A DNA stretch of 64,000 nucleotides from IMG/VR virus record IMGVR_UViG_3300009104_000011. The stretch is one strand, 5' to 3'. The position numbers and the translations under genes are program-made. The notes under the pieces are model-generated. The model saw only the letters and a list, made by a program, of their open reading frames with translations, was not told the origin of the DNA and searched no databases. Positions 1 through 40,550 of this stretch are shown here, piece after piece. The DNA comes from an uncultured virus (IMG/VR IMGVR_UViG_3300009104_000011) (Duplodnaviria > Heunggongvirae > Uroviricota > Caudoviricetes). How positions within the stretch are numbered: the first letter of the stretch is position 1; every line of letters begins with the position of its first letter.

Positions 1-454
1 GATGGCTTAACCGGCCACACGGGTGCATATTTGAAAGCACATCGAGGTAGAACGTATTGGAGGTCTGCAAGCCTCTGCAAAAATGTCGCGAAGGCGACAC
101 CCATAGGCTGATCCAGCCATATCCATAGAGAATAGATTACAACCCGGAAAGACGGGTACTAGATGGAAGTGTTGTGGCGATAGGTGGTCCCTAGAACTAT
201 ACGATACGGAAGTCAACCGGCGGGACACAGGGTAAATTGGTCATTGACAGTGGCCTACTCTGTAGAGCGAACCGCTTCGGTTGGTAACACGGATGTTCCT
301 AGCGGAGCATCTGGTGTGGAGAACTCTTGTCCAAGAAGGCGAATATTGTTTACCAAACATAAACATTGAACTAGCCGACCATGGATACTAAGTTACAGTG
401 GTAGCGCCCGCAAAGCGCTATCAACCTTACGAGGCCCGCCAACCGCCGGTACTA
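1..454 (+). ncRNA. Structured non-coding RNA unit(s), may begin before the window
   Basis: No credible ORF; dense GC-rich hairpins with GNRA/UUCG loops (gtcgcgaaggcgac, accgcttcggttggt); long-range stem accggcgg/ccgccggt closing just before ACTA|G at 451-455. Confidence 0.55.
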
Positions 455-629
455 GAATTAGGTAGAAATGATTCCCTTTAGAGGGATGAAGTTTTATCCG
501 GAATCTTCGGATAACGCTTTTTGGTTCTGACCCCGTTTCGGGTGATGAATTAGATTGAGATAGGTCTACCAAACCTATCAGATTGAGGGGGCATTAGTTG
601 TAAAAAGACTAATGCCCTTAATTTTATTA
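455..629 (+). ncRNA. Small structured RNA unit with box D/C-like motif (CTGA...GTGATGA)
   Basis: Bounded by junction motifs; several hairpins (ttatccg/cggataa, gatagg/cctatc, gggcattagt/actaatgccc); ctga-ccc-cgtttc-ggg-tgatga at ~527-548. Confidence 0.45.
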
Positions 630-630
630 G

Positions 631-768
631 ATGGCAAAAACGAACATCAGCAGCATGGCACAGAGCATAATGGCTCTAAAGAAAGACGTGTATAAGAACA
701 AGCCCGTAGAATTTGCGGGCGGTCTTACACTAAACGTCTCCGTGCGGCAAGGAAATAAGGCAAAGTAA
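631..768 (+). CDS. Small basic hypothetical protein (45 aa, MAKTNISS...)
   Basis: ATG directly after ATTA|G junction; open frame read by hand. Confidence 0.55.
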   Translation: MAKTNISSMAQSIMALKKDVYKNKPVEFAGGLTLNVSVRQGNKAK

Positions 769-881
769 TGTGGAACAATAAGAAATGCCGGTGTAAACGA
801 ATACAATAGAATACAAAAGAATTCATTAGAATCGAATACACTAAAAGTGAAAAAGAGACCCACATATTAGGAGACAAAGAA

Positions 882-1961
882 ATGTTACAAGAAAATGATA
901 ACAAAGATGAAATTGAGGTGATGCGCGAGTTAATCGCAAAGCACCCAAAGGAAGCGAATACCTTCCTTTCACGCAAGAAGTTTTCGTTCAGGGGGAAGAA
1001 ATTCAACCTGGTCGATGTAAGCAAGGCCTTGACCTATATTGATGGGTTCAAGGATGCAATAGGAAAGCGCGGTCGAAAAGACAATCAACTAGTGAAGGCT
1101 CTACGGAGTCTAAGACTTGTTGAAGGTGGTTCGACCCCAATCTTTGTGGTTGAGGAAGGAGGACTTCCCCGCCACAGAGGAAGCAATGGTAAGAACATTA
1201 AGTTTGAACTATTCGTCCCTGACAGCAGGGTTCCTAACTGCTATGAACTAGCAAAAACTCTTGCAGCAGCACCACACTTGCTTAACGGCAAGTTCCTCGT
1301 ACGCTATTTTAGTTACGGAGGATTCGCTGCTAATCCAAGTCTAGTGATCGACTCGATGCAAATTTTAATGAGCAACGGGCTAATCGATCAAGCAGACTTT
1401 GATGCAGTTTTCAAAAACGTATATCCATTCAGACAGGCTGAGTGGGTTGAAGATGAATCATACAGAAATGATTGCATGGAAGGATTTATGGCATTTAGCG
1501 ATAAGCGTGTCCCCGGCTTCCCTAAGAAGGGAAAGAGGACCGAAAAAGACTTCGATTCTTGGTTTGCAACAAAGCCCCAACAACTCTTCGTAATGAGTTG
1601 GGAGGGCGATGTTCGTTCAAACGGGAAAACTTTCGGAGTAAACTTCTCTGTTGAGAAGTCACCGCTGAAGCCAGATGAGGACGGTAGGACTCGATATCAC
1701 GTGGGCAACAAGTCCCTCGGTGATGAGCCTATGAGATCCCAATTCATGCGTCTACCAAAGTGGAGCAATAAGCCTATCAAGCACAAGCGTGGGAGGCGGA
1801 GTAATGTCCGTCCCTTTGCTTTTGCAAAGATGGGTGCTGCACTAAGAAAGAGACTAAGTGAGGGTTCTGCTACTGAGCAGGACCTATCCAAGTCTTTGGA
1901 AGACAGGTATGGTTCCGACGTACTGGAACTGCTAAAGTCAGGCGAAACAATCACTTACTGA
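882..1961 (+). CDS. Hypothetical protein (359 aa)
   Basis: Long ORF, GGAG leader after junction motif. Confidence 0.8.
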   Translation: MLQENDNKDEIEVMRELIAKHPKEANTFLSRKKFSFRGKKFNLVDVSKALTYIDGFKDAIGKRGRKDNQLVKALRSLRLVEGGSTPIFVVEEGGLPRHRGSNGKNIKFELFVPDSRVPNCYELAKTLAAAPHLLNGKFLVRYFSYGGFAANPSLVIDSMQILMSNGLIDQADFDAVFKNVYPFRQAEWVEDESYRNDCMEGFMAFSDKRVPGFPKKGKRTEKDFDSWFATKPQQLFVMSWEGDVRSNGKTFGVNFSVEKSPLKPDEDGRTRYHVGNKSLGDEPMRSQFMRLPKWSNKPIKHKRGRRSNVRPFAFAKMGAALRKRLSEGSATEQDLSKSLEDRYGSDVLELLKSGETITY

Positions 1962-2107
1962 TTGGATCAATTGACTACATAAAGGGACGTAGGCTATAGT
2001 CTGCGTCCCCCATTAGATAAAGAAAGATTCAAAAGAGGCTCTCGGCGTATGCGATTAAACCCCGTATACACCGAGGGCCTCTATTTTTTTACTAGGTGAA
2101 ATAACTT

Positions 2108-2572
2108 ATGTCACATATGATGAAAGGAAAAACCAGTCTAACTGTTGAAAACAGTGACTGCATAGAAGAAGCGTTGAAGGAGGCTATGCCTCAAGCAACA
2201 ATTCTAAAGAACGAGATAGCACAGATTGCACGTAGACCTACGTGCGACTATGTTATCAGGCGAAGTGGACAATATGACATTGGTCTAAAAGCGAAAGAAG
2301 ATGGAACCTATGAGATCCTTGGATACAATCCAGGCTCAGGTGACCGATCGAAAATCGACAAGATCATGTCTCCAGTCTACACTGCCTACGTGAAAGGTGT
2401 AGTCAGAAAGGCTCTGAAAAAGAGCCCGCAGATGGCTGATATGAGGATGGAGGGTGAGGTAAAAGACACCCACATCGACATTAACGGAAAGAAAAAGAAG
2501 GTAAAGCACATCCGCCTAACTGGTGGATATGTTGGTGGATCCAGTGGATCGTCCAGCGGAGGCTGGGTTTGA
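2108..2572 (+). CDS. DUF1257 (Ycf35-like) family protein
   Basis: MSH..KT.L....CIEEALKE start and YDIGLK..DGTYEI motif; next to DUF2997-like gene and AAA ATPase. Confidence 0.7.
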   Translation: MSHMMKGKTSLTVENSDCIEEALKEAMPQATILKNEIAQIARRPTCDYVIRRSGQYDIGLKAKEDGTYEILGYNPGSGDRSKIDKIMSPVYTAYVKGVVRKALKKSPQMADMRMEGEVKDTHIDINGKKKKVKHIRLTGGYVGGSSGSSSGGWV

Positions 2573-2775: not shown

Positions 2776-2812
2776 AAAGCCGCAAGTGGAAAGTAACCTT
2801 TCTTTCCTATTA

Positions 2813-3016
2813 GGAAGAGTAACACAAACCTTGCTTGATTTTGTAAAGGTGGTTTGATCGACCATCAAGAGAAAATTTAAGGGGTTATGTGCTTAAAGTG
2901 ATGGGTTTCACACCTCATCGCTTGCAGGCTTCTCTTGACGAATGAGAATAAGGTGCCCTTCCCACACCGGAGGGCGATGCAAAGAGAAATGCTAACTCTT
3001 TGCACGCCTTCCACCA
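2813..3016 (+). ncRNA. Structured RNA unit (~204 nt) with terminal stem and 3' ACCA
   Basis: 5' GGAAG pairs with 3' CTTCC followed by ACCA|G; internal stems tcaagagaa/ttctcttga, tgcaaagag/ctctttgca, gccctt/agggc. Confidence 0.65.
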
Positions 3017-5689
3017 GATAGACATTATGGAATAAGAAGTACTAGTGATATTTGATACCGAGGTATATAACCAATGACGTTATGTTACCATCTAGTGTCG
3101 AATAGTCCACTTTCTAATTGAATAAATTCAAAAGAAAGTGTAAACACAGTAAACACACGAGATGAGAATTAGAAATGCACGGTTACCCTTACAGGGCAAC
3201 CTAAAACACAATTCACATCTAGTAAACACGCTCGTCAATCCTATGGATTGATCGACAACTCTAACACCAGATGGTAACATCGATAAAATATACTAATTTC
3301 CCTAGGCGCCCAGCCTAAGGGAGACTATGGCAACGGTAACCAAAGTGCTGACCAATTTAGCATACTGGATACCCATGGCCAGTGTTAAATTACGATGTTC
3401 TTTTTTGGTTCTATAAGGAGAGGTCCCAAGTAATACACGAGGGGCTCTTCGCGAACCAATAAAATCTGGTTAACAAAAATTTAGAATAAAACCCTGTGTC
3501 CAACAAGACCTGGGGTTGGAATGCATTAAATCGATAAAATAATACTAATCATTTGAATGAGTTCGTGGTGTTGTCCGACTACGTGTCCGACAACTAATCA
3601 CTTCTCAATATAAGCAAAATGAATTATCTTACCCTGGTAACATCAGGGAAGGTAGAAAACATTTGAAAGAACAAATAAGTTAGTTAAAACTGGGACGGAA
3701 CTCAGAAATTACGCTAAATAACACCATATTTATGATGAATATGTTTTGACAAGGCTGTGTGACAACAGTGCTCTAGACACATTAGAAATAAATAAACAAG
3801 GTCCAGTTGGTAAGTTCTCCCTTACCTCTTTTGAGGTAAGAGGAATAACAATCTCTACACAGTGGTGTGGAAGAATACTGGATACCGGTGATGGAAAGAA
3901 ATTGAAGTGGAAAATCTAGAGATGGTGGGTTACCGCCCACAACTCTCGGACGAACCCACATTCTTTACCACGGATAAACGTGGAAAAACCTGAACTGCAG
4001 ACGGTATACCCGGAAACATATGGTTTCTGAGATTATATAAACAAAACAAGAAAACAGTATGGTCAGCCCCTGGTAAAGGGTTAGATTATTCTGATAATGT
4101 AAATAATCTAAAACATAAGATTGCGGTCCTGAGGTGAGGAATTCGTAACCTATGCGGACCCTAATTAGCCACAAATACATTTGCAAAAAGACTTGGAAGA
4201 CACATCCCAAGTGACCCAGAGCATCTGGGAAAGTTGCAACAACTAACGAAATAAAATTTTACGTAACGTGCACGTAACGTGGAGCGGAAGATAAACTAAC
4301 ATCTAATGCCAGGTAAAAGACTTTGAACTTTAACTTGGAGGCGATGTCAGGAACGTCGACCTCCTCACACTGAGTGCGCAAAGATTTGCAAAAGAACATA
4401 CTAAGTTCTTATCTAAATTATACTTTAAAGAGAAAACAAAGAATTCTCTTACCGACGCGCGTCGTAGGTAAGAGCACCAAAAAACAAGAATACTTTGTAA
4501 AAGCATGTTGCTACATTATACACAGCAACAAATAAACCGTTTACCAACCTAGTAAAACTCCTCTAACGAGTTGAGACTAAGGAAACTTACACACTAATAG
4601 TAGAATTACCACACGTGACGAACGGTGGCTAACATTACTAGAGTGGACACACACACACTAAACAAAAACCTACAACTAACAAGGCTACAATATTAAGCCA
4701 AAGTAACCTGTCCAATATTAATGGAAAAAGAGTTACTAGTGTAGTTACTATGCGAGATAAAAAGACAACACAAAGGCAAATCGAACACAAACTCATAAAA
4801 AAGAGTGGACTGCGAGGCTGCCTAGACTTTTTGAACCAGGGTTACATTGCAAACGAAAACATTTAGTTTTTCGCCAGCAGTTACAAACTAATGGAGAACC
4901 AAAAGCACTCCAGAAGTGAAGAAGAGAAAAAGCAATGACAATGACGTCGACGAGAAGTCGAACAAAAAAGAGATACACTCTCAAAGATTTGCTAAGCACG
5001 CGGCACGGCCGCGGATACCATTGCTCTTCCCACTAAAACAAAACAAGAAAGTTTGACAGCAGGACGAAGTCGTCCTCCTCCTGGATACATACTATGTTTT
5101 CCGGGGACCCCTGAAATAGACTTTAGAAAAAACAACTAAAGAAAACAATCTTGCATGCCAGAAGAAGAGTGACTTACACGTCACAAAATTTCTGACATCA
5201 TATCAAAATTAATTGATTACATCATCTAATAGATGATTTACATCATACACATTGACATTGACAACTACAAAAAATGAAGACGGCTACCAAATAGAAAATG
5301 GTAGTCATGAAGACTTTCATTAAAGAAACTACAGTTATAGAAGAATGAATACATTGCCTGGTTAATTAAAGAAGAAAAAAGTAAAAAACACAGGTAGTAT
5401 GACAGCAGATTCGAGCCAATAAGGCTAGAACCATGAGAAGACCACCCATTTGGTGGTCTAATCTATATTTACCAAAAATAAAAAAATATGGAAGTGTAAG
5501 AGACATTGCACCTCCTTACGGGTAATGTAGAACTCGTGTAAACAAATTAGTGCGATACAAGACAGTAATCACTGATTAAATCACTGGCGATAGCAGAACG
5601 AACTACCCCTTAGATCTCTCTAATCGAGAGGTTTAGTAGGGAAGACTCGCGCGCTATCTTTAACCCCACTTCCCATAATGCTGTCACCA
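3017..5689 (+). ncRNA. Very large (~2.67 kb) structured RNA, K-turn family
   Basis: No + strand ORF of 60 aa or more; 5' GATAG-A-CATTATGG pairs with 3' CCATAATG-CTGTC followed by ACCA|G; K-turn at 3058-3079; dozens of hairpins joined by A-rich linkers. Confidence 0.7.
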
Positions 5690-5702
5690 GAGAGAGAAAA
5701 TT

Positions 5703-7430: not shown

Positions 7431-7467
7431 AAATTGACCTATAAACGGTCATATTAGAGGAGAAATT

Positions 7468-9893: not shown

Positions 9894-9901
9894 TGCTATT
9901 A

Positions 9902-10051
9902 GGGAGAGAGGAGTACTGTACCAAGTTTGTTGGTTTCTTGTTATATTGTCTCTTTGTTCGGCCTAACACGCCGATTTTCATCACAGAGGATCGCTTAAGT
10001 GCTAACGTATACTTGCACAGATAGCCGTCCTCCGGTACTCCCTCCCCACTA
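9902..10051 (+). ncRNA. Structured RNA unit (~150 nt)
   Basis: Terminal stem gggag..ggagtac/gtactcc.ctccc followed by ACTA|G. Confidence 0.65.
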
Positions 10052-10086
10052 GATGAGGAGAGAAGAGACAATAAAAACCAATACTA

Positions 10087-10903: not shown

Positions 10904-10911
10904 GATTACTA

Positions 10912-30198: not shown

Positions 30199-30217
30199 GA
30201 CCCAGTCTCAATATTAG

Positions 30218-31459
30218 ATGGCTAAAGGACCTAGTCGAAAGAAAATTGGTAGGCAAATGAGTCAGACCGACTCATATTCTACCAAAATAAAGATGACCAA
30301 GTCGCAGCACGGTGCGCATCGAAAGATGCGGGCCAAATTTAATGAAATAAGAAAGCAGTTATACTCCCATAATTATTGGAGTGTACTTGCTCTTAGAGAT
30401 GCTGTACTTACTTGGACAAATTACAAAGCAGACACAGTAATTGGAACAGAATTACATCTTCAAGCACACACACGGGATGCCTATGGCGTTCCATTGGGGA
30501 CAAGTAATACTGTACGACCAATCTGGTCTATTGCTGGTAGAAAATTATCTGATACAGAGGTTTATAGAATCGCAGAGAATATCTGCGGTTACAGTCCAGG
30601 AAATGAATTATTTCCTGACCACTTAACAAGAGAAGAAGCATTGCTTTTCATAGAAGTCACTGAAATGATTCAGGAGGCTTGGGAGAGCATGAAGCATTCT
30701 TTTATGCACGCCGCTGAAAACAGAGAACAAAGAATAAATAAACACTATTCAACAAACCAAAAAGATCGCAATAAGAAGGTCGCGCGTAAAAGCGCTTATG
30801 ACCCAATTTGCTTTCAACAAGTTGGCGCGTTGGAAGGTAAAAAGGGCGAGTTAATATATAACTGGCTCTCAATATGTGACGCAAGAAAAGGCTGCTATGC
30901 TTGTTACAAAGCAGCAGAACTGCACAGATTGACTGATACTGAACGTCTAATATTTCTTACACGAAATAGAGACGAAGCAGTGACATCGTTTCAAATGATA
31001 CAAAAATTAACATCCCGCTTAAAGCAACTTCTTGAGCAGGCCGCAAAAGGTTCTAAAACAATAACCTTTGATGATGGCCATGTTTTTGACCAAGCAGCGT
31101 TTAACAAAAAGTACGCTGACTTTGAGTGGGACAAATATACAGATGTTGTGACATCGCCCGGTGCAATGTACCGGTTGGTGAGCACCTCTGTTTGTACACA
31201 CTACAATAAGAAATACGGAGAAATAGAAACTGCCAAACTAAGACGTTTAGGTTACGGACTACGGTTGGAAATAATAGAGATGCGGACTGATGTTCGTGAC
31301 TTCTACAAACCACTTTATGACGTACTGAACTATATCTTAGTTGGCTTAGATTCTAAAATTTATCCGAAACTAATATTGCCCGAAGACTGCGGTTGTGATA
31401 ACTGCGAGGGCAAAGATTTCTTGACAGATCCTAATCTGGTGTGGGATGAAACACAATGA
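30218..31459 (+). CDS. Hypothetical protein (413 aa)
   Basis: Long ORF at junction; scattered Cys motifs. Confidence 0.8.
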   Translation: MAKGPSRKKIGRQMSQTDSYSTKIKMTKSQHGAHRKMRAKFNEIRKQLYSHNYWSVLALRDAVLTWTNYKADTVIGTELHLQAHTRDAYGVPLGTSNTVRPIWSIAGRKLSDTEVYRIAENICGYSPGNELFPDHLTREEALLFIEVTEMIQEAWESMKHSFMHAAENREQRINKHYSTNQKDRNKKVARKSAYDPICFQQVGALEGKKGELIYNWLSICDARKGCYACYKAAELHRLTDTERLIFLTRNRDEAVTSFQMIQKLTSRLKQLLEQAAKGSKTITFDDGHVFDQAAFNKKYADFEWDKYTDVVTSPGAMYRLVSTSVCTHYNKKYGEIETAKLRRLGYGLRLEIIEMRTDVRDFYKPLYDVLNYILVGLDSKIYPKLILPEDCGCDNCEGKDFLTDPNLVWDETQ

Positions 31460-31465
31460 TGTTAC

Positions 31466-31496
31466 TGCCGATCACAATGATCGGCTTTATTTTTTG
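31466..31496 (+). terminator. Possible intrinsic terminator
   Basis: gccgatc-acaat-gatcggc followed by tttatttttt. Confidence 0.45.
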
Positions 31497-31508
31497 TCTA
31501 CCTATTAA

Positions 31509-32366
31509 ATGGAGAAACGAATACCAATTGGGACTAAATATCCAAGAGTGGTTGGCATAATTGAGAAGGCTTTCAAAGCCAGTAATAAAGAAATTCTAAG
31601 TTCAATCGAAATAACAAACTGGGTGAAAGACAATTACCCAAGGAGTAATCTTGGTCAGCGACGAGTTTCTTCATTTCTGAAAAGAAGGCCACAATTTGTA
31701 TACCATACTAGCGCGAGAAGGAGAAACTCCAATATTCGCGATCATTGGTATTCTCTAGGCCCATCAAATGAAACTATTTTCATTGAAATGAATTGGGTCG
31801 AAGACCAACCATATAAGATGGATAAGAGACATCACAATAAGAGAAAAAGACGCCGTCAAAGAAGACGGACAGATTTATCTAAACACAAGAAACGTGGTAG
31901 AAAAAAAGAAAAAATAAACTGCGCTTTGTGTGAGATAGAATTTACTCCACATAATGAAGGAGATAAAATATGTAGTTTGCCGGCATGTCAATCGCTTAGC
32001 GATAACGTGACAAGTGGTGAATCGTATATACCGAAAATTCACCCAGATCACTATGACAAAACTGATGACCCAGCATATCTGAGACAACCAAGTACAGATG
32101 ATGTGGCGATTACTACTGAGAAAGAGCGAGTGGCTGGTATGGAAAGGAAAGAGAAAAACCCCCAGAACTTTCTGGGTGGTTTAGAATACCATACTGGTCG
32201 TCGTTACATGAGAGATCAATGTATCGAAGATCACGACGGTAATGCTGTACGAGTGTACGCAACTGCCGAAGAAAGAACTCGCGCTTTTACAGAAGAAGCG
32301 GCAAAAACACAGGTTGTTAAATCACATTTGAATAGTGTGATTAAGAAACATACCCGCTCCGGGTGA
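31509..32366 (+). CDS. Hypothetical protein, winged-helix-like N-terminus plus Zn finger
   Basis: LSSIEITNWV...RRVSSFLKR; basic linker; CALC...CSLPAC. Confidence 0.65.
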   Translation: MEKRIPIGTKYPRVVGIIEKAFKASNKEILSSIEITNWVKDNYPRSNLGQRRVSSFLKRRPQFVYHTSARRRNSNIRDHWYSLGPSNETIFIEMNWVEDQPYKMDKRHHNKRKRRRQRRRTDLSKHKKRGRKKEKINCALCEIEFTPHNEGDKICSLPACQSLSDNVTSGESYIPKIHPDHYDKTDDPAYLRQPSTDDVAITTEKERVAGMERKEKNPQNFLGGLEYHTGRRYMRDQCIEDHDGNAVRVYATAEERTRAFTEEAAKTQVVKSHLNSVIKKHTRSG

Positions 32367-32380
32367 AAGACCGGAATTAG

Positions 32381-33331
32381 ATGCCAATATCTATTGACGA
32401 GAATATAAGAGAAAAACAAGTGTGGGTTGCACACGTAACCCCAGCAACAGTAACAATGCTAGAAGATAATCTAGAACATTGCCCAGATGTAACTAATAGT
32501 TGCAGTGGTGGACACGATTGCCCAGTGAAACGATTTTCACTGTTCAGAAACGGTCGGCCAGGGAAGCCCCATTTAGCGGGAGCGAAAGAGAACTTATTTG
32601 TACGAAGGTACAGGCTATTTTTCTCTGGAAAGACTGGTGGGTTGCTTAAAGCAATCAGGATTGGTTGTTGTAACCACGTCACACTTGAATTAGGCAGCGG
32701 AAGAAGAATTAAGAGAAAGAAGGATGTTGAAGAAGCAGTAGAAGAACTCATAGAAGTTCTCATATTGTTTGGTAACTACATGAAGAATTTTAAGCAGGTC
32801 TGGAGTCTAACGACTGATATGACCAACAAAAAGGCTTACAATGAATTCTTTTCAAAGGTCGAAGAAACTGATTGGGTTAGTCTGATTGGTTTCTTAGGCA
32901 CCCCGGATTTTAGGAAAACTATTCCTACTCCCGGTAAAAAGAAAGGAAGGAGACTACGAAGAAGCGATCGAATTGAATTTGATCAAAAACTTAAGGTAAA
33001 GCAATTGATGTGCTTGGAATATATTTACACACTGGCTAACCAGGCTTATAAAAACGAAGATCTTACTCCATACGAGTATGACGAACTTATGCAAGTCTGG
33101 AATGAAACCAGAGAGCGTGTTAACAATCAAGGTTATCCTGGTGAAACTGCGTTTCCCCCACTAAGGGCAACGCAGGAGCAAATCAACTATTTTTTGGGCG
33201 TAGAAGGCGACCCAATCAACCTTACTCAAGAATTCATAGACAAGGCTATTGAAGCCGCTAATCGCGGCTCCATGTCGCTCGGAACCATAACAATTGATGA
33301 CGAGAGGCACGACCTAAATCCGCAAAACTGA
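32381..33331 (+). CDS. Hypothetical protein
   Basis: 316 aa ORF at junction. Confidence 0.75.
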   Translation: MPISIDENIREKQVWVAHVTPATVTMLEDNLEHCPDVTNSCSGGHDCPVKRFSLFRNGRPGKPHLAGAKENLFVRRYRLFFSGKTGGLLKAIRIGCCNHVTLELGSGRRIKRKKDVEEAVEELIEVLILFGNYMKNFKQVWSLTTDMTNKKAYNEFFSKVEETDWVSLIGFLGTPDFRKTIPTPGKKKGRRLRRSDRIEFDQKLKVKQLMCLEYIYTLANQAYKNEDLTPYEYDELMQVWNETRERVNNQGYPGETAFPPLRATQEQINYFLGVEGDPINLTQEFIDKAIEAANRGSMSLGTITIDDERHDLNPQN

Positions 33332-33350
33332 GGGCTTTGACCCTCTATTA

Positions 33351-33501
33351 GAGACGGTAAATTTTTCCCTGCTATAAGCAGGTTTTTAACAAAACAATCG
33401 GTTCGTAATTAGGCAGTGTGCCTTCCCATAGTGTTGAACTTGAGATTGACAAATAGATAATCTGTTAGTAGGGGACGAACACAGTGAAATCGTTAAAACT
33501 A
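33351..33501 (+). ncRNA. Possible non-coding unit
   Basis: Bounded by junction motifs, no ORF, hairpin cctgct-ata-agcagg. Confidence 0.35.
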
Positions 33502-33502
33502 G

Positions 33503-33847
33503 ATGAGTATAACTAAATATTGTAAAGAGTGTCGTCAAATATTTGAATTGAGACACGCTGCCCAAAAATATTGTAAAAAAGAATGTTTAGAAATGGCAAG
33601 AAAGAAGTATATTCGTAATAAGGTGCAAATGCATCGTATCAATAAGAATCAATGGACTTTCTTGCATAACGAGAACACAGAGAATGAAGATGATCGGATT
33701 ATGGTGACTTATTTGAGTACACCTAACCTACTCGATAAAATTAATTCTCTAGATAAAGACTACAATATCATAGGGATACAAATTACCGAAAGCAATCCTG
33801 ATAAAATTGGGGTTGTTATCGCAGAGTCCTCCTCGGAAGAGGAGTGA
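33503..33847 (+). CDS. Zn-finger protein
   Basis: CKEC...YCKKEC. Confidence 0.7.
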   Translation: MSITKYCKECRQIFELRHAAQKYCKKECLEMARKKYIRNKVQMHRINKNQWTFLHNENTENEDDRIMVTYLSTPNLLDKINSLDKDYNIIGIQITESNPDKIGVVIAESSSEEE

Positions 33848-33855
33848 TCTATTAG

Positions 33856-33975
33856 ATGATTGAAAGAGTAATGCACTGTAGAAAGTGCGGGTTTCGCGGT
33901 ATGACAGTTCAGATGAAGTGTCCTCACTGCGGAGATCCCTATTTTGAACCACATTGTGTGGGATGCGGAGAATGA
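33856..33975 (+). CDS. Micro Zn-ribbon protein (39 aa)
   Basis: CRKCG, CPHCG, CVGCG; ATG at junction. Confidence 0.65.
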   Translation: MIERVMHCRKCGFRGMTVQMKCPHCGDPYFEPHCVGCGE

Positions 33976-33985
33976 CCGCAATTAG

Positions 33986-34351
33986 ATGAATATAGACATA
34001 CAAGAATTACCCGATGAACTGATTTGGACTGCCACGATGGCTGCGGCTATAAATAGCCCAGCAGCAGCCGCTGTTCTAGAAGGAATTGCAGAAAGACTAT
34101 TGAAAGACATTGACGATCCAGAGTTCAAAGAAAGATTTCAATCTTTACAACAACTCTTTGAGAACAATCCACCTGACGGACTTGATGAACTAGACGAAGT
34201 TGGTTCAGAAAAGATGGCAAAATGGATTGTTGGACTCTCCGGCCTAGTCGGAGCACATATGGAAATCGAAGAGGCTCTAGGTGGTGCAATCAATGATATC
34301 ATGGCGGGAGTTAGGGACAGTGTCCTTAGTTTTGCCCGCGAAAACAGATGA
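33986..34351 (+). CDS. Hypothetical helical protein
   Basis: ORF at junction. Confidence 0.7.
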   Translation: MNIDIQELPDELIWTATMAAAINSPAAAAVLEGIAERLLKDIDDPEFKERFQSLQQLFENNPPDGLDELDEVGSEKMAKWIVGLSGLVGAHMEIEEALGGAINDIMAGVRDSVLSFARENR

Positions 34352-34372
34352 GGGTAACACCTCTTCTATTAG

Positions 34373-34546
34373 ATGACCGAAGAAAAAACTGAGGTGTACA
34401 TATTTCGTCTCAGTATAACGGAGAAGAAAAAAATAAAGACTTTGGCTGAGAAGTCAAACCTGAGTGCTAGTGAATACATTCGGGCTTGTTCCTTGAAAGG
34501 AATGAAAGTCACAAAGACAACAACAACTTCCTACCAATACGAGTAG
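34373..34546 (+). CDS. Ribbon-helix-helix (MobC/CopG-like) protein, copy 1
   Basis: FRLSITEKKKIKTLAEKSNLSASEYIR. Confidence 0.7.
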   Translation: MTEEKTEVYIFRLSITEKKKIKTLAEKSNLSASEYIRACSLKGMKVTKTTTTSYQYE

Positions 34547-34555
34547 GATAATTAG

Positions 34556-34717
34556 ATGACCAAGGCAAGAACTGTGAGGCACGAATTTCGCCTCACTGTA
34601 AGGGAAAAGAAAAAACTAGAGACTTTGGCTAAGAAGTCAAACCTGAGTGTTAGTGAATACATTCGGGTTTGTTGCTTGAAAGGAACCAAAGTCACAATAA
34701 CCTATGAATACGAATAG
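34556..34717 (+). CDS. Ribbon-helix-helix (MobC/CopG-like) protein, copy 2
   Basis: FRLTVREKKKLETLAKKSNLSVSEYIR; nucleotide paralog of copy 1. Confidence 0.7.
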   Translation: MTKARTVRHEFRLTVREKKKLETLAKKSNLSVSEYIRVCCLKGTKVTITYEYE

Positions 34718-34726
34718 GTTAATTAG

Positions 34727-35020
34727 ATGGAAGAAATCGAAGATATTTGTAACAAGGTGATTTACTTTACCGACAGATGGAAAGATTACGGAAGAAGAAT
34801 GAGAGATGCAGAGCATAAACTCACTGAGGCGCTTAAAATAAATCCGCTTGAGGATTTTACTACTACAGTTGGCAAGTATACAATAAAATACGAAAATAGC
34901 CGACTAGAAGTAGACGAAAAGATTGAGCCAGCAGAACCCGTAACAATGAAAATGCTAGAAGAAGAAAACGCGCCCGAATGGGCTAAAGCGGCTTTCAAGG
35001 CTTCTAGTGGAGAGGAATGA
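34727..35020 (+). CDS. Hypothetical protein
   Basis: ORF at junction. Confidence 0.7.
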   Translation: MEEIEDICNKVIYFTDRWKDYGRRMRDAEHKLTEALKINPLEDFTTTVGKYTIKYENSRLEVDEKIEPAEPVTMKMLEEENAPEWAKAAFKASSGEE

Positions 35021-35030
35021 TCCTCTATTA

Positions 35031-35408
35031 GTGAGTAAAATAAAGAAAACCACAAAGAAAATATTCAAGATACCAATGTACTACGAATCTGGAGAAACTA
35101 AGTTGATGGTATACATCGCTGATAAACTCACAGATGTTAAGACATTCGTGGAGTGCATTGACGACCCTGATGATTACGATGGTGTAGATGCTGTCGTATT
35201 CAATTGGAACAACCACATCCGTGTAATATTTGAAAGAAAACACATCGATGCAGGAAGGATCGCACATGAAGCGATCCACATCAAGAATAGGATTTTCAAG
35301 TATAGCGGCATAGAGAACGACCCAGACAACGACGAACCAGAAGCCTATTTAGTGCAATGGATTGTCAATAAAATACACGGCGTTCTAGCCAAAGACAACG
35401 AGGAGTAA
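35031..35408 (+). CDS. Putative Zn metallopeptidase-like protein (HExxH)
   Basis: IAHEAIH...EPEAYL; GTG start at ATTA|GTG. Confidence 0.65.
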   Translation: MSKIKKTTKKIFKIPMYYESGETKLMVYIADKLTDVKTFVECIDDPDDYDGVDAVVFNWNNHIRVIFERKHIDAGRIAHEAIHIKNRIFKYSGIENDPDNDEPEAYLVQWIVNKIHGVLAKDNEE

Positions 35409-35419
35409 TCCTCTATTAG

Positions 35420-35854
35420 ATGAGTGAAATCACAGATGAACAATTGGATGAAGCATACGACAAGATACAAGAGACGACAGTCCTGATAAATACCCCAGAA
35501 GCCGAAAGGCGATTTGGGATTGAGGGAACGTTTAACCTGTATTCTGTTGGCATGAAGGATAACTACGATCTACCAGATTTGGAGATGCGTGGTGTTCCTG
35601 GAATGCTGGCTAGCGCCGCTGCTGAGACCATAAACACACTGAATGCCTACAGATTAGTTTCTGACAAGCCAGTTTTGGTTGGTCAGACGATAGAATGGAG
35701 ATTCGGTTTAATAAGAACTGAGCAGGGTGATGATTGGGATGGAAGACATGAGCACAAGGCGGAAGATATGATCCGCCTAACAAGTGCGATGACTGATATC
35801 CATCATGCCCAATGCGAATGTTGTCAATTTGACGACGCTGGAGTCACTGAGTGA
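35420..35854 (+). CDS. Hypothetical protein
   Basis: ORF at junction; YSVGM...LPDLE motif. Confidence 0.7.
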   Translation: MSEITDEQLDEAYDKIQETTVLINTPEAERRFGIEGTFNLYSVGMKDNYDLPDLEMRGVPGMLASAAAETINTLNAYRLVSDKPVLVGQTIEWRFGLIRTEQGDDWDGRHEHKAEDMIRLTSAMTDIHHAQCECCQFDDAGVTE

Positions 35855-35864
35855 TTCCTATTAG

Positions 35865-36215
35865 ATGAAGAAAAGAAAAAGAAATCATAAAGACCCCTTT
35901 ACGACGAATGTAACGATTAACCACCCTGACGTGGTTAGATGGCCATTGAAATGTCGTGGGGTGATTGATACAGGTGCAACCAGAACATCAATTGATTATG
36001 GTCTGGCTCACACTCTGAATCTTGAACCTGCTGGACAGGTTACAGTAAAAAATGCAAATGGAAAGCAGAAAAGGAAACTTGTCTGGGCACAAATAGAAGT
36101 CTTTGACGAGGTAATCGTCCTAAAGGTTTCAGTGACTGACAGATCTAAACTATCCTGTCCTATACTAATAGGTAGGGATATACTGCAATACAATGCATAT
36201 AGCGAGGAAGAATAA
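35865..36215 (+). CDS. Retropepsin-like aspartic protease
   Basis: IDTGATRTSID and ILIGRD. Confidence 0.85.
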   Translation: MKKRKRNHKDPFTTNVTINHPDVVRWPLKCRGVIDTGATRTSIDYGLAHTLNLEPAGQVTVKNANGKQKRKLVWAQIEVFDEVIVLKVSVTDRSKLSCPILIGRDILQYNAYSEEE

Positions 36216-36226
36216 TCCTCTATTAG

Positions 36227-36769
36227 ATGGAACCAATATTAACTACACTACCAGAAGAATTCTACAAGGTAGTCGATAAATGGTACAAAAAAAGAGGAAG
36301 AAGAACCTACAATTTTGCAAAGAATTTAGAAGACTTAAACGGCAAGCGCGAACGAGAGCGATTGCTACACATACTGCTGAACGCGGGTCTAAAACGACTC
36401 ATTGCTCAGGCTGGAAAGGAACAAGGTATAAGTTCTGAACTAGTTGGTAGTAATGATATAGTTCGCGGCCCACGAGGGACGATAATCAAGCAAAAACGAA
36501 TAGGAATAGAAATAACAACAAATTTCGATATACGAAAACAGTTTGGTGCGAGAATAATCTACATTACGCGAGAGACACTATTCAAACGAATAATAGATCG
36601 CGAAAAGAACTATAATCGGTTACTATACAGTAACAGTCCACTGAAACCTACAAAGAAACCTACAGCCACAATGACTGCTAGAAAATGCTCTGGTAAATTA
36701 CACCGGCATTGTAGTATCTGTGGTATGTGTTTCACGAATGCGGCAACGCATGACCGTGGACATGTCTAA
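36227..36769 (+). CDS. Hypothetical protein with C-terminal Zn motif
   Basis: HCSICGMCF...HD. Confidence 0.7.
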   Translation: MEPILTTLPEEFYKVVDKWYKKRGRRTYNFAKNLEDLNGKRERERLLHILLNAGLKRLIAQAGKEQGISSELVGSNDIVRGPRGTIIKQKRIGIEITTNFDIRKQFGARIIYITRETLFKRIIDREKNYNRLLYSNSPLKPTKKPTATMTARKCSGKLHRHCSICGMCFTNAATHDRGHV

Positions 36770-36779
36770 CCTCTATTAG

Positions 36780-36944
36780 ATGAAATGCGAATACTGTAAG
36801 AAAGAAATAGAAGAATCTTACACAATCAAGACTTACACTCATACGAGTGAAGGTCCGAAAGATAAGAGCGAGAAATATTATTGTAATATAGAATGTTGTA
36901 ATTCTGCAATACTGGCTCGCAAATACGAAAAACAAAAGTGGTGA
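36780..36944 (+). CDS. Small Zn-finger (TRASH-like) protein
   Basis: CEYCKKEI...YCNIEC; ATG at junction. Confidence 0.65.
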   Translation: MKCEYCKKEIEESYTIKTYTHTSEGPKDKSEKYYCNIECCNSAILARKYEKQKW

Positions 36945-36953
36945 CACTATTAG

Positions 36954-37268
36954 ATGACGAAGAGACAACAGATTCTCAAAAAGGAAGCAGAAAGACAAAG
37001 GGTACGATACAAAGGTCGGCCAGAGTCAATCGCTTCGACACTTAAAGGAATCATGGCTTATCTCCACAAAGAGAAAGTTACAAACAAAGATTGTTTGACT
37101 GCTTTGAATAAAGTTGGCGTGTGGCGAAAAACTACACAGCGATTTGATAAGCCCAATGAAGATTTTACCGTTGCGGAACTTAAGGCTGCGCTCCGAGAGC
37201 GCGATCTACCGCTAACAGGTAATAAAACTGTGCTAGTCGAAAGACTGGTAAAGTCAATGGATTGCTAA
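36954..37268 (+). CDS. SAP-domain protein
   Basis: FTVAELKAALRERDLPLTGNKTVLVERL. Confidence 0.8.
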   Translation: MTKRQQILKKEAERQRVRYKGRPESIASTLKGIMAYLHKEKVTNKDCLTALNKVGVWRKTTQRFDKPNEDFTVAELKAALRERDLPLTGNKTVLVERLVKSMDC

Positions 37269-37280
37269 CAATCCTATTAG

Positions 37281-37529
37281 ATGCCACATAAGGGATTCAA
37301 AAAGAATAGCAATTCAAAAGACAAGTTTCGTCTTTTGGCAGAAGAAGCGCTCCTAGAATATGGCGCTGCTAGTTCAGGTGTTATCTTCGACTATGTCAAG
37401 AACCAACACAAAACTAACCAAAGATGGATGCCGTTAAAATCATCGGTATACGCTTGGTTGGCTAGCAGCCCTAGATTCTGCAGAGGAACGGATGGAAATT
37501 GGCGACTAACTAGGTCGTCTGAGGCTTAG
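37281..37529 (+). CDS. Putative winged-helix protein
   Basis: SSVYAWLASSPRF...GNWRL. Confidence 0.55.
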   Translation: MPHKGFKKNSNSKDKFRLLAEEALLEYGAASSGVIFDYVKNQHKTNQRWMPLKSSVYAWLASSPRFCRGTDGNWRLTRSSEA

Positions 37530-37541
37530 GCCTCTAATTAG

Positions 37542-37784
37542 ATGAGTTCAAGAGAATTTTATGAAGACTTTGTTCAATTATCACCTAATGGTAACTACTT
37601 AGTTAGAAGCGAAACAAACGACTTAACAGTCTATTTTGTTTGGCGACCTACAGAAAATAGGGACTACTGGCTATGTAATTGTTGGGACTATAAACGCCGA
37701 CAAAGACACACTAGGGGTAATTGCAAACATATACTGTTAGTGCAGGAATTTTTAGAGTTCTTGGAAAACAGAAAGGAGGAGTAG
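37542..37784 (+). CDS. SWIM zinc-finger protein
   Basis: CNCWD...CKHI. Confidence 0.8.
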   Translation: MSSREFYEDFVQLSPNGNYLVRSETNDLTVYFVWRPTENRDYWLCNCWDYKRRQRHTRGNCKHILLVQEFLEFLENRKEE

Positions 37785-37911
37785 TCCTCTATTAGATGAG
37801 TGACTTACACGACGAAATTGTACCGTGGCGTTTGCACCTTGCAAGCGAACGGAAAACACTTCATTCCCAACGGAAATCTAAAATGCCCCACCTTGGGGAA
37901 TTTATTGGGGA

Positions 37912-38142
37912 GTGACATATCAGATGGAAGAAATTTATGAGAAATTGAAATATGCAGGACCTACACAGGCGGAGGCAAGGAAGATTTTGGCTACAGCCGC
38001 AATCAATGCTATCCGTGATAACGAAGACATAAAATATGTCCGTTTTTACTATGAGGACTGGGCAGATATCAAGCAGAAAAATTTTACCAAAATGCAAGAG
38101 CAGATAATTGAGCGCTTGCAAAGATGGGGAAAAGTGAAATAA
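37912..38142 (+). CDS. Hypothetical protein
   Basis: 76 aa ORF coupled to a 39 aa junction-started ORF (37796-37915). Confidence 0.55.
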   Translation: MTYQMEEIYEKLKYAGPTQAEARKILATAAINAIRDNEDIKYVRFYYEDWADIKQKNFTKMQEQIIERLQRWGKVK

Positions 38143-38160
38143 TCCCCTTCTATTAGATGA

Positions 38161-38237
38161 GGGTCCATAGTTTAGTCAGGTAGAACGTCCGGCTCTTAAC
38201 CGGAAGGTCGCAGGTTCAAACCCTGCTGGACTCGCCA
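38161..38237 (+). tRNA. tRNA-Lys(CTT), CCA encoded
   Basis: Acceptor GGGTCCA/TGGACTC, anticodon arm TCCGG-CTCTTAA-CCGGA, T arm GCAGG-TTCAAAC-CCTGC, 3' GCCA. Confidence 0.95.
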
Positions 38238-38244
38238 TCATTAG

Positions 38245-38439
38245 ATGAGTGAAGAAATTATCCGCTGCAATGAATGCGGTAAAAAAGACTTAGACGAAGT
38301 TATAGAATGTTCCGAATGTGGGATGTTCTGCATTTCGTGCTATGACAAAAATGCGAATAAATGGGTGATACTAAATCATCCTAATCACTGTCGGGACCTA
38401 TGTCCCGAACACGCGCATTTGGTAAAAGCCTCCGAGTGA
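38245..38439 (+). CDS. Small Cys-rich Zn-finger protein
   Basis: CNECG, CSECG, CISC, CPEH. Confidence 0.7.
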   Translation: MSEEIIRCNECGKKDLDEVIECSECGMFCISCYDKNANKWVILNHPNHCRDLCPEHAHLVKASE

Positions 38440-38448
38440 GGCTATTAG

Positions 38449-38733
38449 ATGAGCAATAAATGCCCACACTATGATGAGTATGATTACGATACCTTACATG
38501 ATCCTGAATTTTTGCACCACCCTGCCCATGATTGGGTTGTGGAGATGCTAGATGATGCTCCGAAGGCGTACATCAGGGGAGATACAGGTGAGAAGTATCT
38601 CAGTCTAAGCATGAGGTTAAGATGTACCAAATGTGGTGCAACTTATGACACGAGCACTTTTGTAAACAAGGAAACAGGAATGACACAGTTCTCCCTTTTC
38701 TGCAAAAGACAACTAATCAAAGCCTTTGAGTGA
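38449..38733 (+). CDS. Hypothetical protein
   Basis: ORF between repeats; CTKCG. Confidence 0.7.
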   Translation: MSNKCPHYDEYDYDTLHDPEFLHHPAHDWVVEMLDDAPKAYIRGDTGEKYLSLSMRLRCTKCGATYDTSTFVNKETGMTQFSLFCKRQLIKAFE

Positions 38734-38742
38734 GGCTATTAG

Positions 38743-38886
38743 ATGAGTAACGAAAGTGAAATTGAGGCGGCTTACAAAGCCGGAGCCCACAGAATTATCA
38801 ACTTAAATTTGATGAGCCCCAACATAAAAGACAAATTGGTTGAAGTACTTTGGCTAGAATACCGCTTTAACAAAGCCTCCGAGTGA
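38743..38886 (+). CDS. Micro protein (47 aa, MSNESEIE...KASE)
   Basis: Fills the interval between two repeats exactly. Confidence 0.6.
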   Translation: MSNESEIEAAYKAGAHRIINLNLMSPNIKDKLVEVLWLEYRFNKASE

Positions 38887-38895
38887 GGCTATTAG

Positions 38896-39003
38896 ATGGC
38901 GATAAAGAAAGACTACAAGTATTTCATGAAAAAACATTTCAGCGTGAGGGCCATCGGTCTGATTGCTTTAGTGATTTTTACACATGAACTACTACATTTG
39001 TAA
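38896..39003 (+). CDS. Micro membrane protein (35 aa)
   Basis: ATG at junction; hydrophobic segment. Confidence 0.5.
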   Translation: MAIKKDYKYFMKKHFSVRAIGLIALVIFTHELLHL

Positions 39004-39026
39004 AGCCTTCTGAGCGAGGCTATTAG

Positions 39027-39515
39027 ATGAGTAACGAAAGTGAAAATAAAAGAATTGATTTAACTCAGTTTGAAGGTAAGGGGATAGTTCCGTTAATGGT
39101 TCTACCCAATACCTACACGATAGCACAGGATAACAATAGAATCTATGAAGACTACAATTATCCCGATGACGATGAAAATCGCTACGGGTGGATTGTGGGA
39201 AACATTGATTCTCATTATGAGTCCGATGACCCCGAATACGGGGTTGTGCAAAGTGAAAGGCAGGAAGTAATGGCGAAACTTTTCGCCATGGCTCCTGACC
39301 TAATTGCTGAGTTAAACAGAATGTACAAAAGAGAAGATGAACTTATGGAGATACTGTCTGTCCTTGAAGATAGACACGATATTGACATGGGTCAATTTGA
39401 TTCCGAAGAAACACACCGGAGGTCGTTAAGACAGGACTTCGGACAAGGAACTGGAGAATTAGAATCCACCCTTGGTGACGGACAACCTGAATGGACTTCC
39501 GGACCAAATATGTGA
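39027..39515 (+). CDS. Phage hypothetical protein
   Basis: AKLFAMAPDLIAEL resembles the common phage NARLIAAAPDLL motif. Confidence 0.7.
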   Translation: MSNESENKRIDLTQFEGKGIVPLMVLPNTYTIAQDNNRIYEDYNYPDDDENRYGWIVGNIDSHYESDDPEYGVVQSERQEVMAKLFAMAPDLIAELNRMYKREDELMEILSVLEDRHDIDMGQFDSEETHRRSLRQDFGQGTGELESTLGDGQPEWTSGPNM

Positions 39516-39538
39516 ACGCCTCCTAGTGAGGCAATTAG

Positions 39539-40054
39539 ATGAGTAACGAAAGTGAAAACACAGGACTGCTTTCTACAGAGGAAGCAGTAGAGAAATACGA
39601 TGGTGAGGAAACGACATCGACCGAGAACGAAATGAGGCAAGACCTCGGAGAGTTTCGTACTGACCACCTAAAGGCGGTTATAAACGGAAGAATCGTTGAG
39701 GTTGATGGAATCCTGACCGACAAGGCATACCAAGAGTTCTTGGTGCTTTGGAACGAAAACCATGACAACAACTATGGGGAAACGTGGAACACAAAATATG
39801 CTTGTGCGGACCACATGAGAACACACGCTGCTAGATACGGCTTTAGTGATGTTGACGACGACGAAGGACACTTCGGATGGGGTCACACCACTGAAAAATC
39901 GAGTAAGCCGTTGGCAGATTTGCCTGTGCTTTTCCCTAGACTGGTTGTCCTAGTTTCTGCGTCTGACTTGTTGCACCGATGTGCAACTGATAAGCAACGC
40001 ATGGAACAATTCTACGAAAGCCGTGGGCAAACAGCCCCATGGAACGCCTCCTAG
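39539..40054 (+). CDS. Hypothetical protein
   Basis: ORF between repeats. Confidence 0.7.
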   Translation: MSNESENTGLLSTEEAVEKYDGEETTSTENEMRQDLGEFRTDHLKAVINGRIVEVDGILTDKAYQEFLVLWNENHDNNYGETWNTKYACADHMRTHAARYGFSDVDDDEGHFGWGHTTEKSSKPLADLPVLFPRLVVLVSASDLLHRCATDKQRMEQFYESRGQTAPWNAS

Positions 40055-40067
40055 TGAGGCATATTAG

Positions 40068-40199
40068 ATGAATGGAGAACAAATCGACAAATGGTCAGAA
40101 AAGCACGTTGGAAGCCTAGCATTAACGAGAACCCTAGTAGGGTTTCTTAATGTGGCCTTGAGTACCTTAGTGGTATTCAAATTATTCGACGTGATATAA
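40068..40199 (+). CDS. Micro membrane protein (43 aa)
   Basis: ATG at junction; C-terminal hydrophobic helix. Confidence 0.6.
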   Translation: MNGEQIDKWSEKHVGSLALTRTLVGFLNVALSTLVVFKLFDVI

Positions 40200-40210
40200 C
40201 GACCTATTAG

Positions 40211-40522
40211 ATGGTAAAAATATGTGTGCTTTGCGGCACAGAAATTGAAGGTCATGGCAACAACCCTGCTCCCTTAAATCAGGGACATGGTAGATGTTGT
40301 GATGGCTGTAATACCGATTTAGTGATTCCCATGCGAATATATGGGAGTCGCTTTGATGTGCAGTTAATGCAAACGCAGCAACTAGAAGTGCTTTGGACAG
40401 ATATGATGCGCAAGCGTCGGAAAGCCCAAAGTAAGACGAAGTATGTTCCGGGTATGTCCTTGGAGGACGTCCTGGAATTGCAAAGGCGGATAGAAGAGAA
40501 CAACTATTCACCGCAGAACTGA
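40211..40522 (+). CDS. Zn-finger phage protein
   Basis: CVLCG..IEGHGNNPAP...RCCDGCN. Confidence 0.7.
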   Translation: MVKICVLCGTEIEGHGNNPAPLNQGHGRCCDGCNTDLVIPMRIYGSRFDVQLMQTQQLEVLWTDMMRKRRKAQSKTKYVPGMSLEDVLELQRRIEENNYSPQN

Positions 40523-40550
40523 CGGTATATTAGAAACGGTGGCATCGAAG

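Follow-up and report, generated by a model that had tools for sequence, protein, structure and literature searches.

In mitochondrial tRNA punctuation, and at the tRNA-like t-elements, structured elements between the genes are the points at which a long transcript is separated into almost leaderless mRNAs. The cassettes of integrons carry attC, an imperfect inverted repeat of 57–141 bp with R and L boxes and a GTTRRRY core, and the model substrates of RNase P, like the external guide sequences, have a helix that runs from G+1, followed by NCCA on the 3' strand. In the T4-type phages, exchange between relatives has been proposed to occur through recombination at a repeated element, the PeSL (PMC2839356, PMC4122927). 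The present analysis concerns a comparable mark, formed by a helix and the letters AYYAG, which separates the units of a single-strand array in the left part of a 64,000-nt stretch of DNA of an uncultured virus (IMG/VR record IMGVR_UViG_3300009104_000011), the whole of which is referred to here as the window.

The PeSL resembles this mark in being a short composite element with variable stems, found between almost all the small accessory genes of a hyperplastic arm, and in that the indels and replacements between close relatives join within the element, as they do here in L093 and other relatives. The PeSL combines a sigma-70-type promoter with a working terminator, whereas the mark in the window has no promoter signal and no T-run after its hairpins, belongs to a virus with a predicted archaeal host, and closes non-coding RNAs as well. 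As in tRNA punctuation, the ACCA or AYYA tail behind a helix, with a G at +1, recalls the acceptor end of a tRNA, but there is no cloverleaf between the genes (a single tRNA in 64 kb, by ARAGORN and Rfam), only hairpins of 4–8 bp or a terminal stem, behind which the proposed cut would fall. The units share with the integron cassettes their arrangement as one-directional, promoterless single-gene units, a folding element that is conserved in structure but variable in sequence, and exchange at a fixed short core, but they have neither the attC architecture nor the GTTRRRY core, their helices are far shorter (4–8 bp plus AYYAG), and RNA genes are found among them. The units closed by a terminal stem are predicted to resemble the RNase P substrates, with a G+1–C helix and then ACCA (ACUA or AACA in the window), although the mRNA units, unlike these substrates, have no helix at +1 (0/159), and the tail is degenerate.

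No description of such a mark was found in searches of the literature on leaderless, polycistronic, or processed transcripts of archaeal viruses and on K-turns and L7Ae, and no mention of a hairpin, stem-loop, promoter, or intergenic element was found in two papers on viruses of the Poseidoniales (PMC5434244, PMC11706807). The mark is probably a site at which RNA is cut, between A and G, to give near-leaderless mRNAs and stem-closed RNAs, with recombination at the mark as a by-product.

Grammar of the array and its conservation

The left arm of the window is made up of units on one strand, each consisting of a G, a body, a helix, and the tail AYYA. The array and some of its junctions are as follows:

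142–40533, plus strand: array of same-strand units, each G + body + helix + AYYA, recognized by strand-specific motif counts, classing of the marks, and hairpin enrichment.
7436–7457, plus strand: mRNA junction, tgacc-tataaac-ggtca-t-ATTAG, with a short leader before the start codon (aggagaaatt-ATG).
15878–15902, plus strand: example junction, tgaggt-acta-acctca-t-ATTAG-ATG, with a minimum free energy (MFE) of -7.3.
33851–40210, plus strand: densest run of small genes, in which ATTAG abuts nearly every ATG and several hairpins are paralogues of gcctc-cgagt-gaggc.
38152–38244, plus strand: tRNA-Lys(CTT) unit, with the tRNA at 38161–38237 and ATTAG on both sides of it, at a distance of 4 nt from its 5' end and of 2 nt from the encoded CCA.

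The most frequent 8-mer of the left part, ATTAGATG, is found 37 times on the plus strand of 1–40533 and twice on the minus strand, and, in 40534–64000, twice on the plus strand and once on the minus. In an alignment on the 52 TAGATG sites, the only conserved letters are C-T-A-T-TAG-ATG-A, with no information upstream of -5. A perfect Watson–Crick stem of at least 5 bp, ending 1–4 nt before the TAG, is present at 23 of these 52 sites, compared with a background of 5.8% over all positions (binomial p 2e-15) and with a mean of 1.2 of 52 when the upstream sequence is shuffled, which bears out the excess of hairpins over shuffled sequence that an earlier, sequence-only reading of the window had anticipated. 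Helices are thus enriched ~8-fold directly upstream of TAGATG, and the outer end of the stem is, in most cases, 0–1 nt ahead of the A of AYYAG.

Of the 311 A[ACT][CT]AG sites in 1–40600, 80 were recognized as unit starts by automatic classing. The ATG of an open reading frame (ORF) of at least 30 aa is abutted by 44 of these marks (controls: one on the plus strand of the right half, two on the whole minus strand), while 13 sites precede nine K-turn RNA modules (controls 0 and 0) and one precedes the tRNA. The two looser classes, with 14 marks followed by a leader of Shine–Dalgarno (SD) type (controls 6 and 6) and eight other "stem-closed" marks (controls 8 and 12), also occur in the controls and therefore contain false calls. 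With this reservation, the count agrees with the more than 60 boundaries estimated by eye in the sequence-only reading, whose four quoted examples, at 7453, 15895, 20182, and 38444, do consist of a hairpin and ATTAG. The mark also separates mRNAs, non-coding RNAs, and a tRNA alike, as had been claimed, given that it precedes ORFs and K-turn modules and flanks the tRNA-Lys on both sides, and it is nearly gone from the right half, where one mark abuts an ATG, compared with 44 in the left. For strict local hairpins (at least 4 bp, 0–2 nt before the mark), which are found at 39 of the 80 marks, the claim that nearly all boundaries have a stem goes too far, and it holds only when imperfect stems and long-range helices, which precede seven further marks, are counted. 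The stop codon of the upstream ORF is usually found in the hairpin, as had been noted, at 23 of the 37 TAGATG sites with an ORF end within 45 nt, where it is located in the loop in 13 cases, in the 3' arm in seven, and in the 5' arm in three.

The relatives of the virus were sought by a scan of metagenomes with the ligase gene, which provided 80 loci. In a viral contig of 143 kb with a ligase 76% identical to that of the window (L001), the grammar is the same, with ggcc-N4-ggcc, one base, TAG, 0–2 bases, and ATG. Upstream of the ligases that are at least 75% identical, all 34 distinct sequences read NYYAG-ATG (ATTAG in 15, ACTAG in eight, CCTAG in seven, ACCAG in two, and CATAG and CTTAG in one each), behind hairpins that are unrelated in sequence, so that pairing is kept while the stems differ, as the sequence-only reading had proposed. 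The mark is absent from four distant ligases (L003, L132, L134, and L135), and its dialect differs from clade to clade. In the 52 unique stems with one mismatch, the mismatch is G-T in 24 and A-C in eight (p 0.007 against equality, 0.03 against the background ratio), and this excess of G-T indicates selection for pairing in the sense strand, as would be the case for RNA. The mark lies 4 nt before the 5' end of the tRNA in the window and also in L001, L123, and L125.

The letters of the tail follow the unit that precedes them. In the clade of the window, a mark found after a local hairpin and before an ATG reads ATTAG in 66 of 66 unique cases, whereas a mark found after a long-range stem reads ACTAG in 18 of 22 and never ATTAG, even though an ATG comes next in 14 of these 22. 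In the L097 and L104 clades, the tail is ACTAG after 23 of 23 local hairpins and ACCAG after 24 of 29 long-range helices. The tails of the mRNA units always retain TAG, and those of the RNA units may read CAG. A signal for a promoter or a translation start should track the downstream unit, and the tail does not, which shows that AYYA is part of the upstream unit, and that a unit is G + body + helix + AYYA.

Folded RNA units closed by a terminal stem

Three stretches of the array without ORFs (about 2800–5700, 9900–12370, and 24170–27105) contain repeated modules, in which AYYAG is followed by ~13 purine-rich bases and then by C[UC]GA-hairpin-(N)AUGACG. A K-turn is composed of a helix, a 3-nt bulge, and tandem G-A/A-G pairs, and the letters of the module, C[UC]GA-stem-loop-stem-NAU-GA-CG, fit this consensus. 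The window has nine such modules on the plus strand and none on the minus, at a fixed distance behind the mark, and the same pattern is found in the relatives 138 times on the strand of the ligase and five times on the other, chance matches included. When the structure is given by hand, the stem of the module hairpin is paired in 95.9% of cells, with 15 double changes, compared with 3.6 in shuffles, a value that was reached by none of 500 shuffles, so that this stem covaries. RNAalifold returned no structure from the MAFFT alignment of the modules, and Rfam recognized only the tRNA of the window at gathering scores, with no family for the K-turn modules and two additional chance-level rows at E up to 1. 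Hammerhead and hairpin ribozymes, box C/D, and H/ACA RNAs were considered for the modules and rejected, given that the letters depart from the consensus of each and that Rfam is silent. A model of the module (R1) gave one weak match in two host genomes, in sequence that appears to be coding.

The units that contain these modules are closed by a stem of their own. A perfect helix of at least 6 bp (6–9 bp), from the G of AYYAG to the base before the downstream AYYAG, is found in 50 of the 70 unique K-turn units, and in 23 of 1390 cases (1.65%) when the 5' segments are shuffled. In the window, the exact register gives eight terminal helices and the shifted registers 0–3, and the units tile head to tail, with no spare base between them. 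The MFE structures of two folded units (z-scores -7.0 and -11.0) include both the terminal stem and a 3' tail of 4 nt, and, by comparison, the mRNA-type units have a helix from the G in 0 of 159 cases, against 13 of 1590 in the control. The stretches without ORFs are, then, tandem folded RNAs, a new observation, and the stem-closed K-turn RNAs cover ~8 kb of the window and have many copies in the relatives. The RNA units, and one stretch that probably contains others, are as follows:

2800–5700, plus strand: stretch of ~3 kb without ORFs, A-rich, with many small hairpins, AYYAG marks, and a single K-turn module at 3041–3090.
10444–10899, plus strand: stem-closed K-turn RNA, GGAAGA...TCTTCC, then ACTAG.
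10912–11470, plus strand: stem-closed K-turn RNA, from the terminal-helix search.
11475–11814, plus strand: stem-closed K-turn RNA, GGATGGG...CCCATCC, then ACTAG.
11819–12367, plus strand: stem-closed K-turn RNA, GAGAAGT...ACTTCTC, AACAG, then ATG; fold z -11.0, and an MFE structure that includes the terminal helix.
19864–19967, plus strand: stem-closed unit of 104 nt without a K-turn, GGAGAG...CTCTCC, ACTAG-ATG; other sequence in L093.
24578–25334, plus strand: stem-closed K-turn RNA, GAGAGTA...TACTCTC, then ACTAG.
25784–26440, plus strand: K-turn RNA with an uncertain 3' limit, in which no perfect 6-bp terminal helix was found.
26722–27104, plus strand: stem-closed K-turn RNA before a primase-like gene; fold z -7.0, inside a 506-nt stretch (26596–27101) that is absent from L093.

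Stem-loops with K-turns are reported from the leaders of the archaeal l7ae mRNAs (PMC5539422). The modules described here recall these in having a hairpin flanked, as in a K-turn, by CUGA and AUGA, with a stem that covaries. They differ in that the K-turn of the virus opens stem-closed RNAs of 130–1000 nt, with many copies per genome.

Some additional observations concern the same units. One of the RNA units includes, at 11154–11355, a near-perfect hairpin of ~200 nt, for which Rfam returned only a chance-level row for a microRNA precursor (37.7 bits, with a gathering score of 211). In L097 (200–4100) and L104 (270–8320), the stem-closed K-turn units follow one another in rows of up to ten and flank primase-like and RNase H genes, and the ligase, primase-like, and RNase H genes recur together across the mark-bearing clades.

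Exchange of units between relatives

In the close relative L093, the aligned blocks are 82–94% identical to the window, and whole units have been gained, lost, or moved, with junctions directly after AYYAG, which is also new here, and which corresponds to the gain and loss of units exactly at the motif envisaged in the sequence-only reading. The clearest cases are:

14434–15116, plus strand: one-gene unit, missing in L093, where it leaves the scar ATTAGAT-ATTAGGAGAG.
22854–22932, plus strand: extra unit of 79 nt between ATTAG and AACAG, absent from L093.
35413–35893, plus strand: one-gene unit that has moved, and is found in L093 behind the counterpart of 31511.

In addition, the 506-nt stretch at 26596–27101, which is extra in relation to L093, is bounded by ATTAG and ACTAG, and the two sequences diverge directly after the ATTAG at 19864. 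The ends of the aligned blocks are within 10 nt of AYTAG in 12 of 20 cases in L093 (1.6 expected), 11 of 26 in L116 (~1.7 expected), nine of 20 in L096, four of 15 in L100, and seven of 18 in L129, with 1.1–1.8 expected across the relatives, although these relatives are not mutually independent and block ends favor gene ends anyway. The explicit junctions are, even so, exact. The gene content of the array is patchy among the relatives.

This behavior invites the view that the mark is primarily a site of recombination in the DNA, either integron-like or read as a hairpin by a nuclease on single-stranded DNA, and that its adjacency to the ATG reflects compaction. The unit-sized changes that join directly after AYYAG, the tandem scar in L093, the concentration of block ends at the mark, the patchy gene content, and the contigs of several sequencing runs that break at the mark would all be accounted for. 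Pfam, PHROGs, and NCBIfam, however, recognized no integrase, HUH protein, or other recombinase among the window proteins (no integrase or recombinase family in the 84 proteins searched with Pfam), and one weak match to a "Recombinase" domain occurs in L097 only. The 100–1000 nt spanned by the terminal stems are strongly folded (z -7 and -11), which is a property of RNA, and a DNA site would have no reason to carry a tail that differs by RNA class. Crossing-over between short repeats would produce the same junctions with no enzyme, and a mark that exists for recombination is, overall, unlikely. The sequence-only reading had offered two possibilities, the punctuation of a long transcript or the scar of cassette acquisition; the cassette behavior is now observed directly, and punctuation, with its putative cut, gains support as the reason for the mark, which it explains better than a cassette does. 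Punctuation is preferred because promoters and SD sequences are missing, the tRNA and folded RNAs are bounded by the mark, the G-U excess is on the sense strand, and the tail depends on the upstream unit.

A number of small genes of the array may also have been duplicated. The adjacent genes at 34373–34546 (57 aa) and 34556–34717 (53 aa) both encode predicted NikA-like ribbon-helix-helix proteins (E 5e-11 and 1.5e-11) and look like a tandem duplicate. The genes at 38743, 39027, and 39539 share identical first 19 bases, ATGAGTAACGAAAGTGAAA, as well as near-identical upstream hairpins, gcct[ct][ct]-gagt/gagc-gaggc, and look like a recently duplicated family of units. Other genes of the array encode a retropepsin-like aspartyl protease domain (35865–36215, 116 aa) and a SAP-domain protein (36954–37268, 104 aa).

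Expression of the array and the case for a probable RNA cut

The proteins of the window include a full TFIIB/TFB (45157–46104), an MCM helicase (42073–44496, minus strand), two archaeo-eukaryotic primase-like proteins, an ATP-dependent ligase, an RNase H, a ribonucleotide reductase, and RusA, and the TFB, MCM, and primases identify the window, on predicted homology, as that of an archaeal virus. The TFB is 50–52% identical to those of 80 genome loci of the Poseidoniales (Marine Group II), and this one gene suggests that the host of this uncultured marine virus is probably a member of that group. No match to the DNA of the window was found in the phage records, and no usable relatives of the MCM and of the proteins of 555 and 413 aa were found in the viral collection. 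A second protein, encoded at 47657–48589 (310 aa), has a weak match to the cyclin fold (the second domain of ORC6). TTAAATA boxes precede 45157 and 46461, and this part of the genome thus seems to rely on ordinary archaeal promoters.

No such signals were found in the array. Between -40 and -20 of the 52 TAGATG sites, the information content does not exceed 0.13 bit, there is no TATA or BRE signal before the marks (the best TATA match and the A/T richness at -40 to -16 are those of the background), and a sigma-70 scan found 36 sites, compared with 40.3 in shuffles. The TFB genes of the host have clear TTAAATA boxes and ribosome-binding sites of the GGTGA type, and GGAGG or GGTGA is found ahead of the starts of the right-half viral genes. 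The genes of the array begin directly behind the mark without an SD sequence, and, in the units that have an SD leader, the mark is 9–12 nt upstream of the ATG. Runs of at least six T are rare (six in 40.6 kb), there are none behind the hairpins of the marks, and terminators formed by a hairpin and a T-run are found at about 2050–2090, at 31467–31495, and at the end of the array:

40553–40586, plus strand: strong hairpin and T9 that closes the array, facing the end of the minus-strand primase gene.

Given the scarcity of T-runs and the end of the array at a hairpin with T9, the array seems to consist of a small number of long transcription units.

The mark might, alternatively, be a non-canonical transcription start, at which the polymerase is redirected, by a viral TFB for example, to the G behind the hairpin. 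The restriction of the mark to one gene class or arm, the purine as first letter, and the presence of genes for a TFB and for a second cyclin-fold protein would fit such a start, and the PeSLs of the T4-type phages are composite elements of this kind (PMC2839356, PMC4122927). This explanation is nevertheless improbable, considering the lack of TATA and BRE signals, the A that would be the letter before the start, the type of tail, which is set by the upstream and not by the downstream unit, the lack of T-runs behind the hairpins, and the gapless tiling, which would require termination and restart at one phosphodiester bond. It is even harder to credit the mark as a device for translational restart or coupling on an uncut polycistronic mRNA, with a stop in the hairpin, an in-frame UAG, and an adjacent AUG, since, even though the upstream stop is 8–14 nt before the TAG at most junctions and TAG is invariably kept in the mRNA tails when CAG is possible in those of the RNA units, the tRNA and the non-coding units are bounded by the same grammar, the TAG shares the frame of the preceding ORF at only 14 of 37 junctions, which is close to chance, and the SD-led units have the mark 9–12 nt before the ATG.

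If the mark is, instead, a site of RNA cutting, the array would be transcribed as a few long transcripts, in which the 3' end of each unit is formed by a helix, 0–1 nt, and the tail AYYA, with the next unit running from the following G. In the coding units, the helix would be a small local hairpin, usually with the stop codon, and in the non-coding units, the stem that closes the unit. Cutting between A and G would then free the mRNAs, the stem-closed folded RNAs, and a tRNA precursor, and the mRNAs would have a protective 3' hairpin and an AUG either 1 nt from the 5' end, which implies leaderless translation, or after a short SD leader. The repeated mark would double as a crossover point in ordinary recombination, given that its presence at every junction would lead to the cassette-like shuffling of the units. 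A cut in the RNA is the most economical explanation of the genes without SD sequences, the stop-bearing 3' hairpins, the bounded tRNA and folded RNAs, the exact tiling, the class-specific tails, and the missing promoters.

A number of points weigh against this explanation. About half of the marks (all but 39 of the 80) have no strict local hairpin. The orthologous hairpins vary little, with two double changes, two single changes that keep the pair, and three that break it. The tRNA of the L001 clade has its own extra hairpin and TAG, which would be superfluous if the enzymes of tRNA ends sufficed. TAGATG is not enriched in the 80 Poseidoniales loci, where gene starts are also not commonly preceded by TAG, so that a host enzyme would meet substrates that are unusual in mRNAs. 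No candidate nuclease was found among the window proteins in Pfam, PHROGs, NCBIfam, PDB sequence, and Atlas searches, in which the only matches related to nucleases or recombinases were RNase H, the two NikA-like proteins, and DUF6744. The mRNA units, with no helix at the G in 159 cases, could not be explained by RNase P alone. Finally, the virus was recognized in two marine RNA runs, with 11% and 5% of the words sampled, and in three DNA-like runs, and the contigs of four runs compared with 20601–40600 gave no recognizable RNA end. Of the 64 ends of the 32 pieces listed among 98, six are on or beside a mark, at 22934 (X1, X2, and X8), 25784 (X1), 37795 (X2), and 20750 (X3), and they are more likely to be strain junctions than RNA ends, because the DNA-like runs show them too. 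The contigs of X1, X2, and X3 also leave the window at the same base, 25453, inside the ORF at 25346–25765, in what looks like a strain-level mosaic junction away from any mark.

As for the enzyme that would cut at the mark, the stem-closed units have the geometry of a tRNA acceptor end, with a G+1–C pair followed by A, C, C, A, and then G, which makes the tRNA-end nucleases of the host the first candidates, a guess based on the substrate rules of these enzymes. RNase P would cut the stem-closed units at A|G, and the mRNA units that end in a hairpin would call for cleavage downstream of a CCA-like tail, as reportedly performed by RNase Z in Thermotoga. Among the 34 tRNA genes listed from two Poseidoniales genomes, the CCA is encoded in 19, ACCA is the end of many, and the first base is G in nearly all. 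A tandem tRNA was suspected at one host locus and rejected, as there is no second tRNA there, and RNase III was discarded as the cutter, given that the stems are far too short. It is possible, though tentative, that the mark mimics a tRNA acceptor end, by analogy with these substrates, in which case the tRNA-end nucleases of the host would dice a transcript of tens of kb into leaderless mRNAs and stem-closed RNAs with K-turns, the dialects of the tail would set the fate of the products, and the mark would make the units exchangeable.

Archaeal viruses are thought to depend on the promoters of the host, gene by gene or operon by operon. If the reading of the mark as a site of RNA cutting is true, the punctuation of RNA at each gene would be a new way to express an archaeal viral genome, and would account for the translation of genes that lie far inside a long array and lack a ribosome-binding site. 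Expression would, moreover, be linked with the fast exchange of accessory genes in the viruses of a very abundant group of marine archaea. The stem-closed K-turn RNAs represent an undescribed class of viral RNA.

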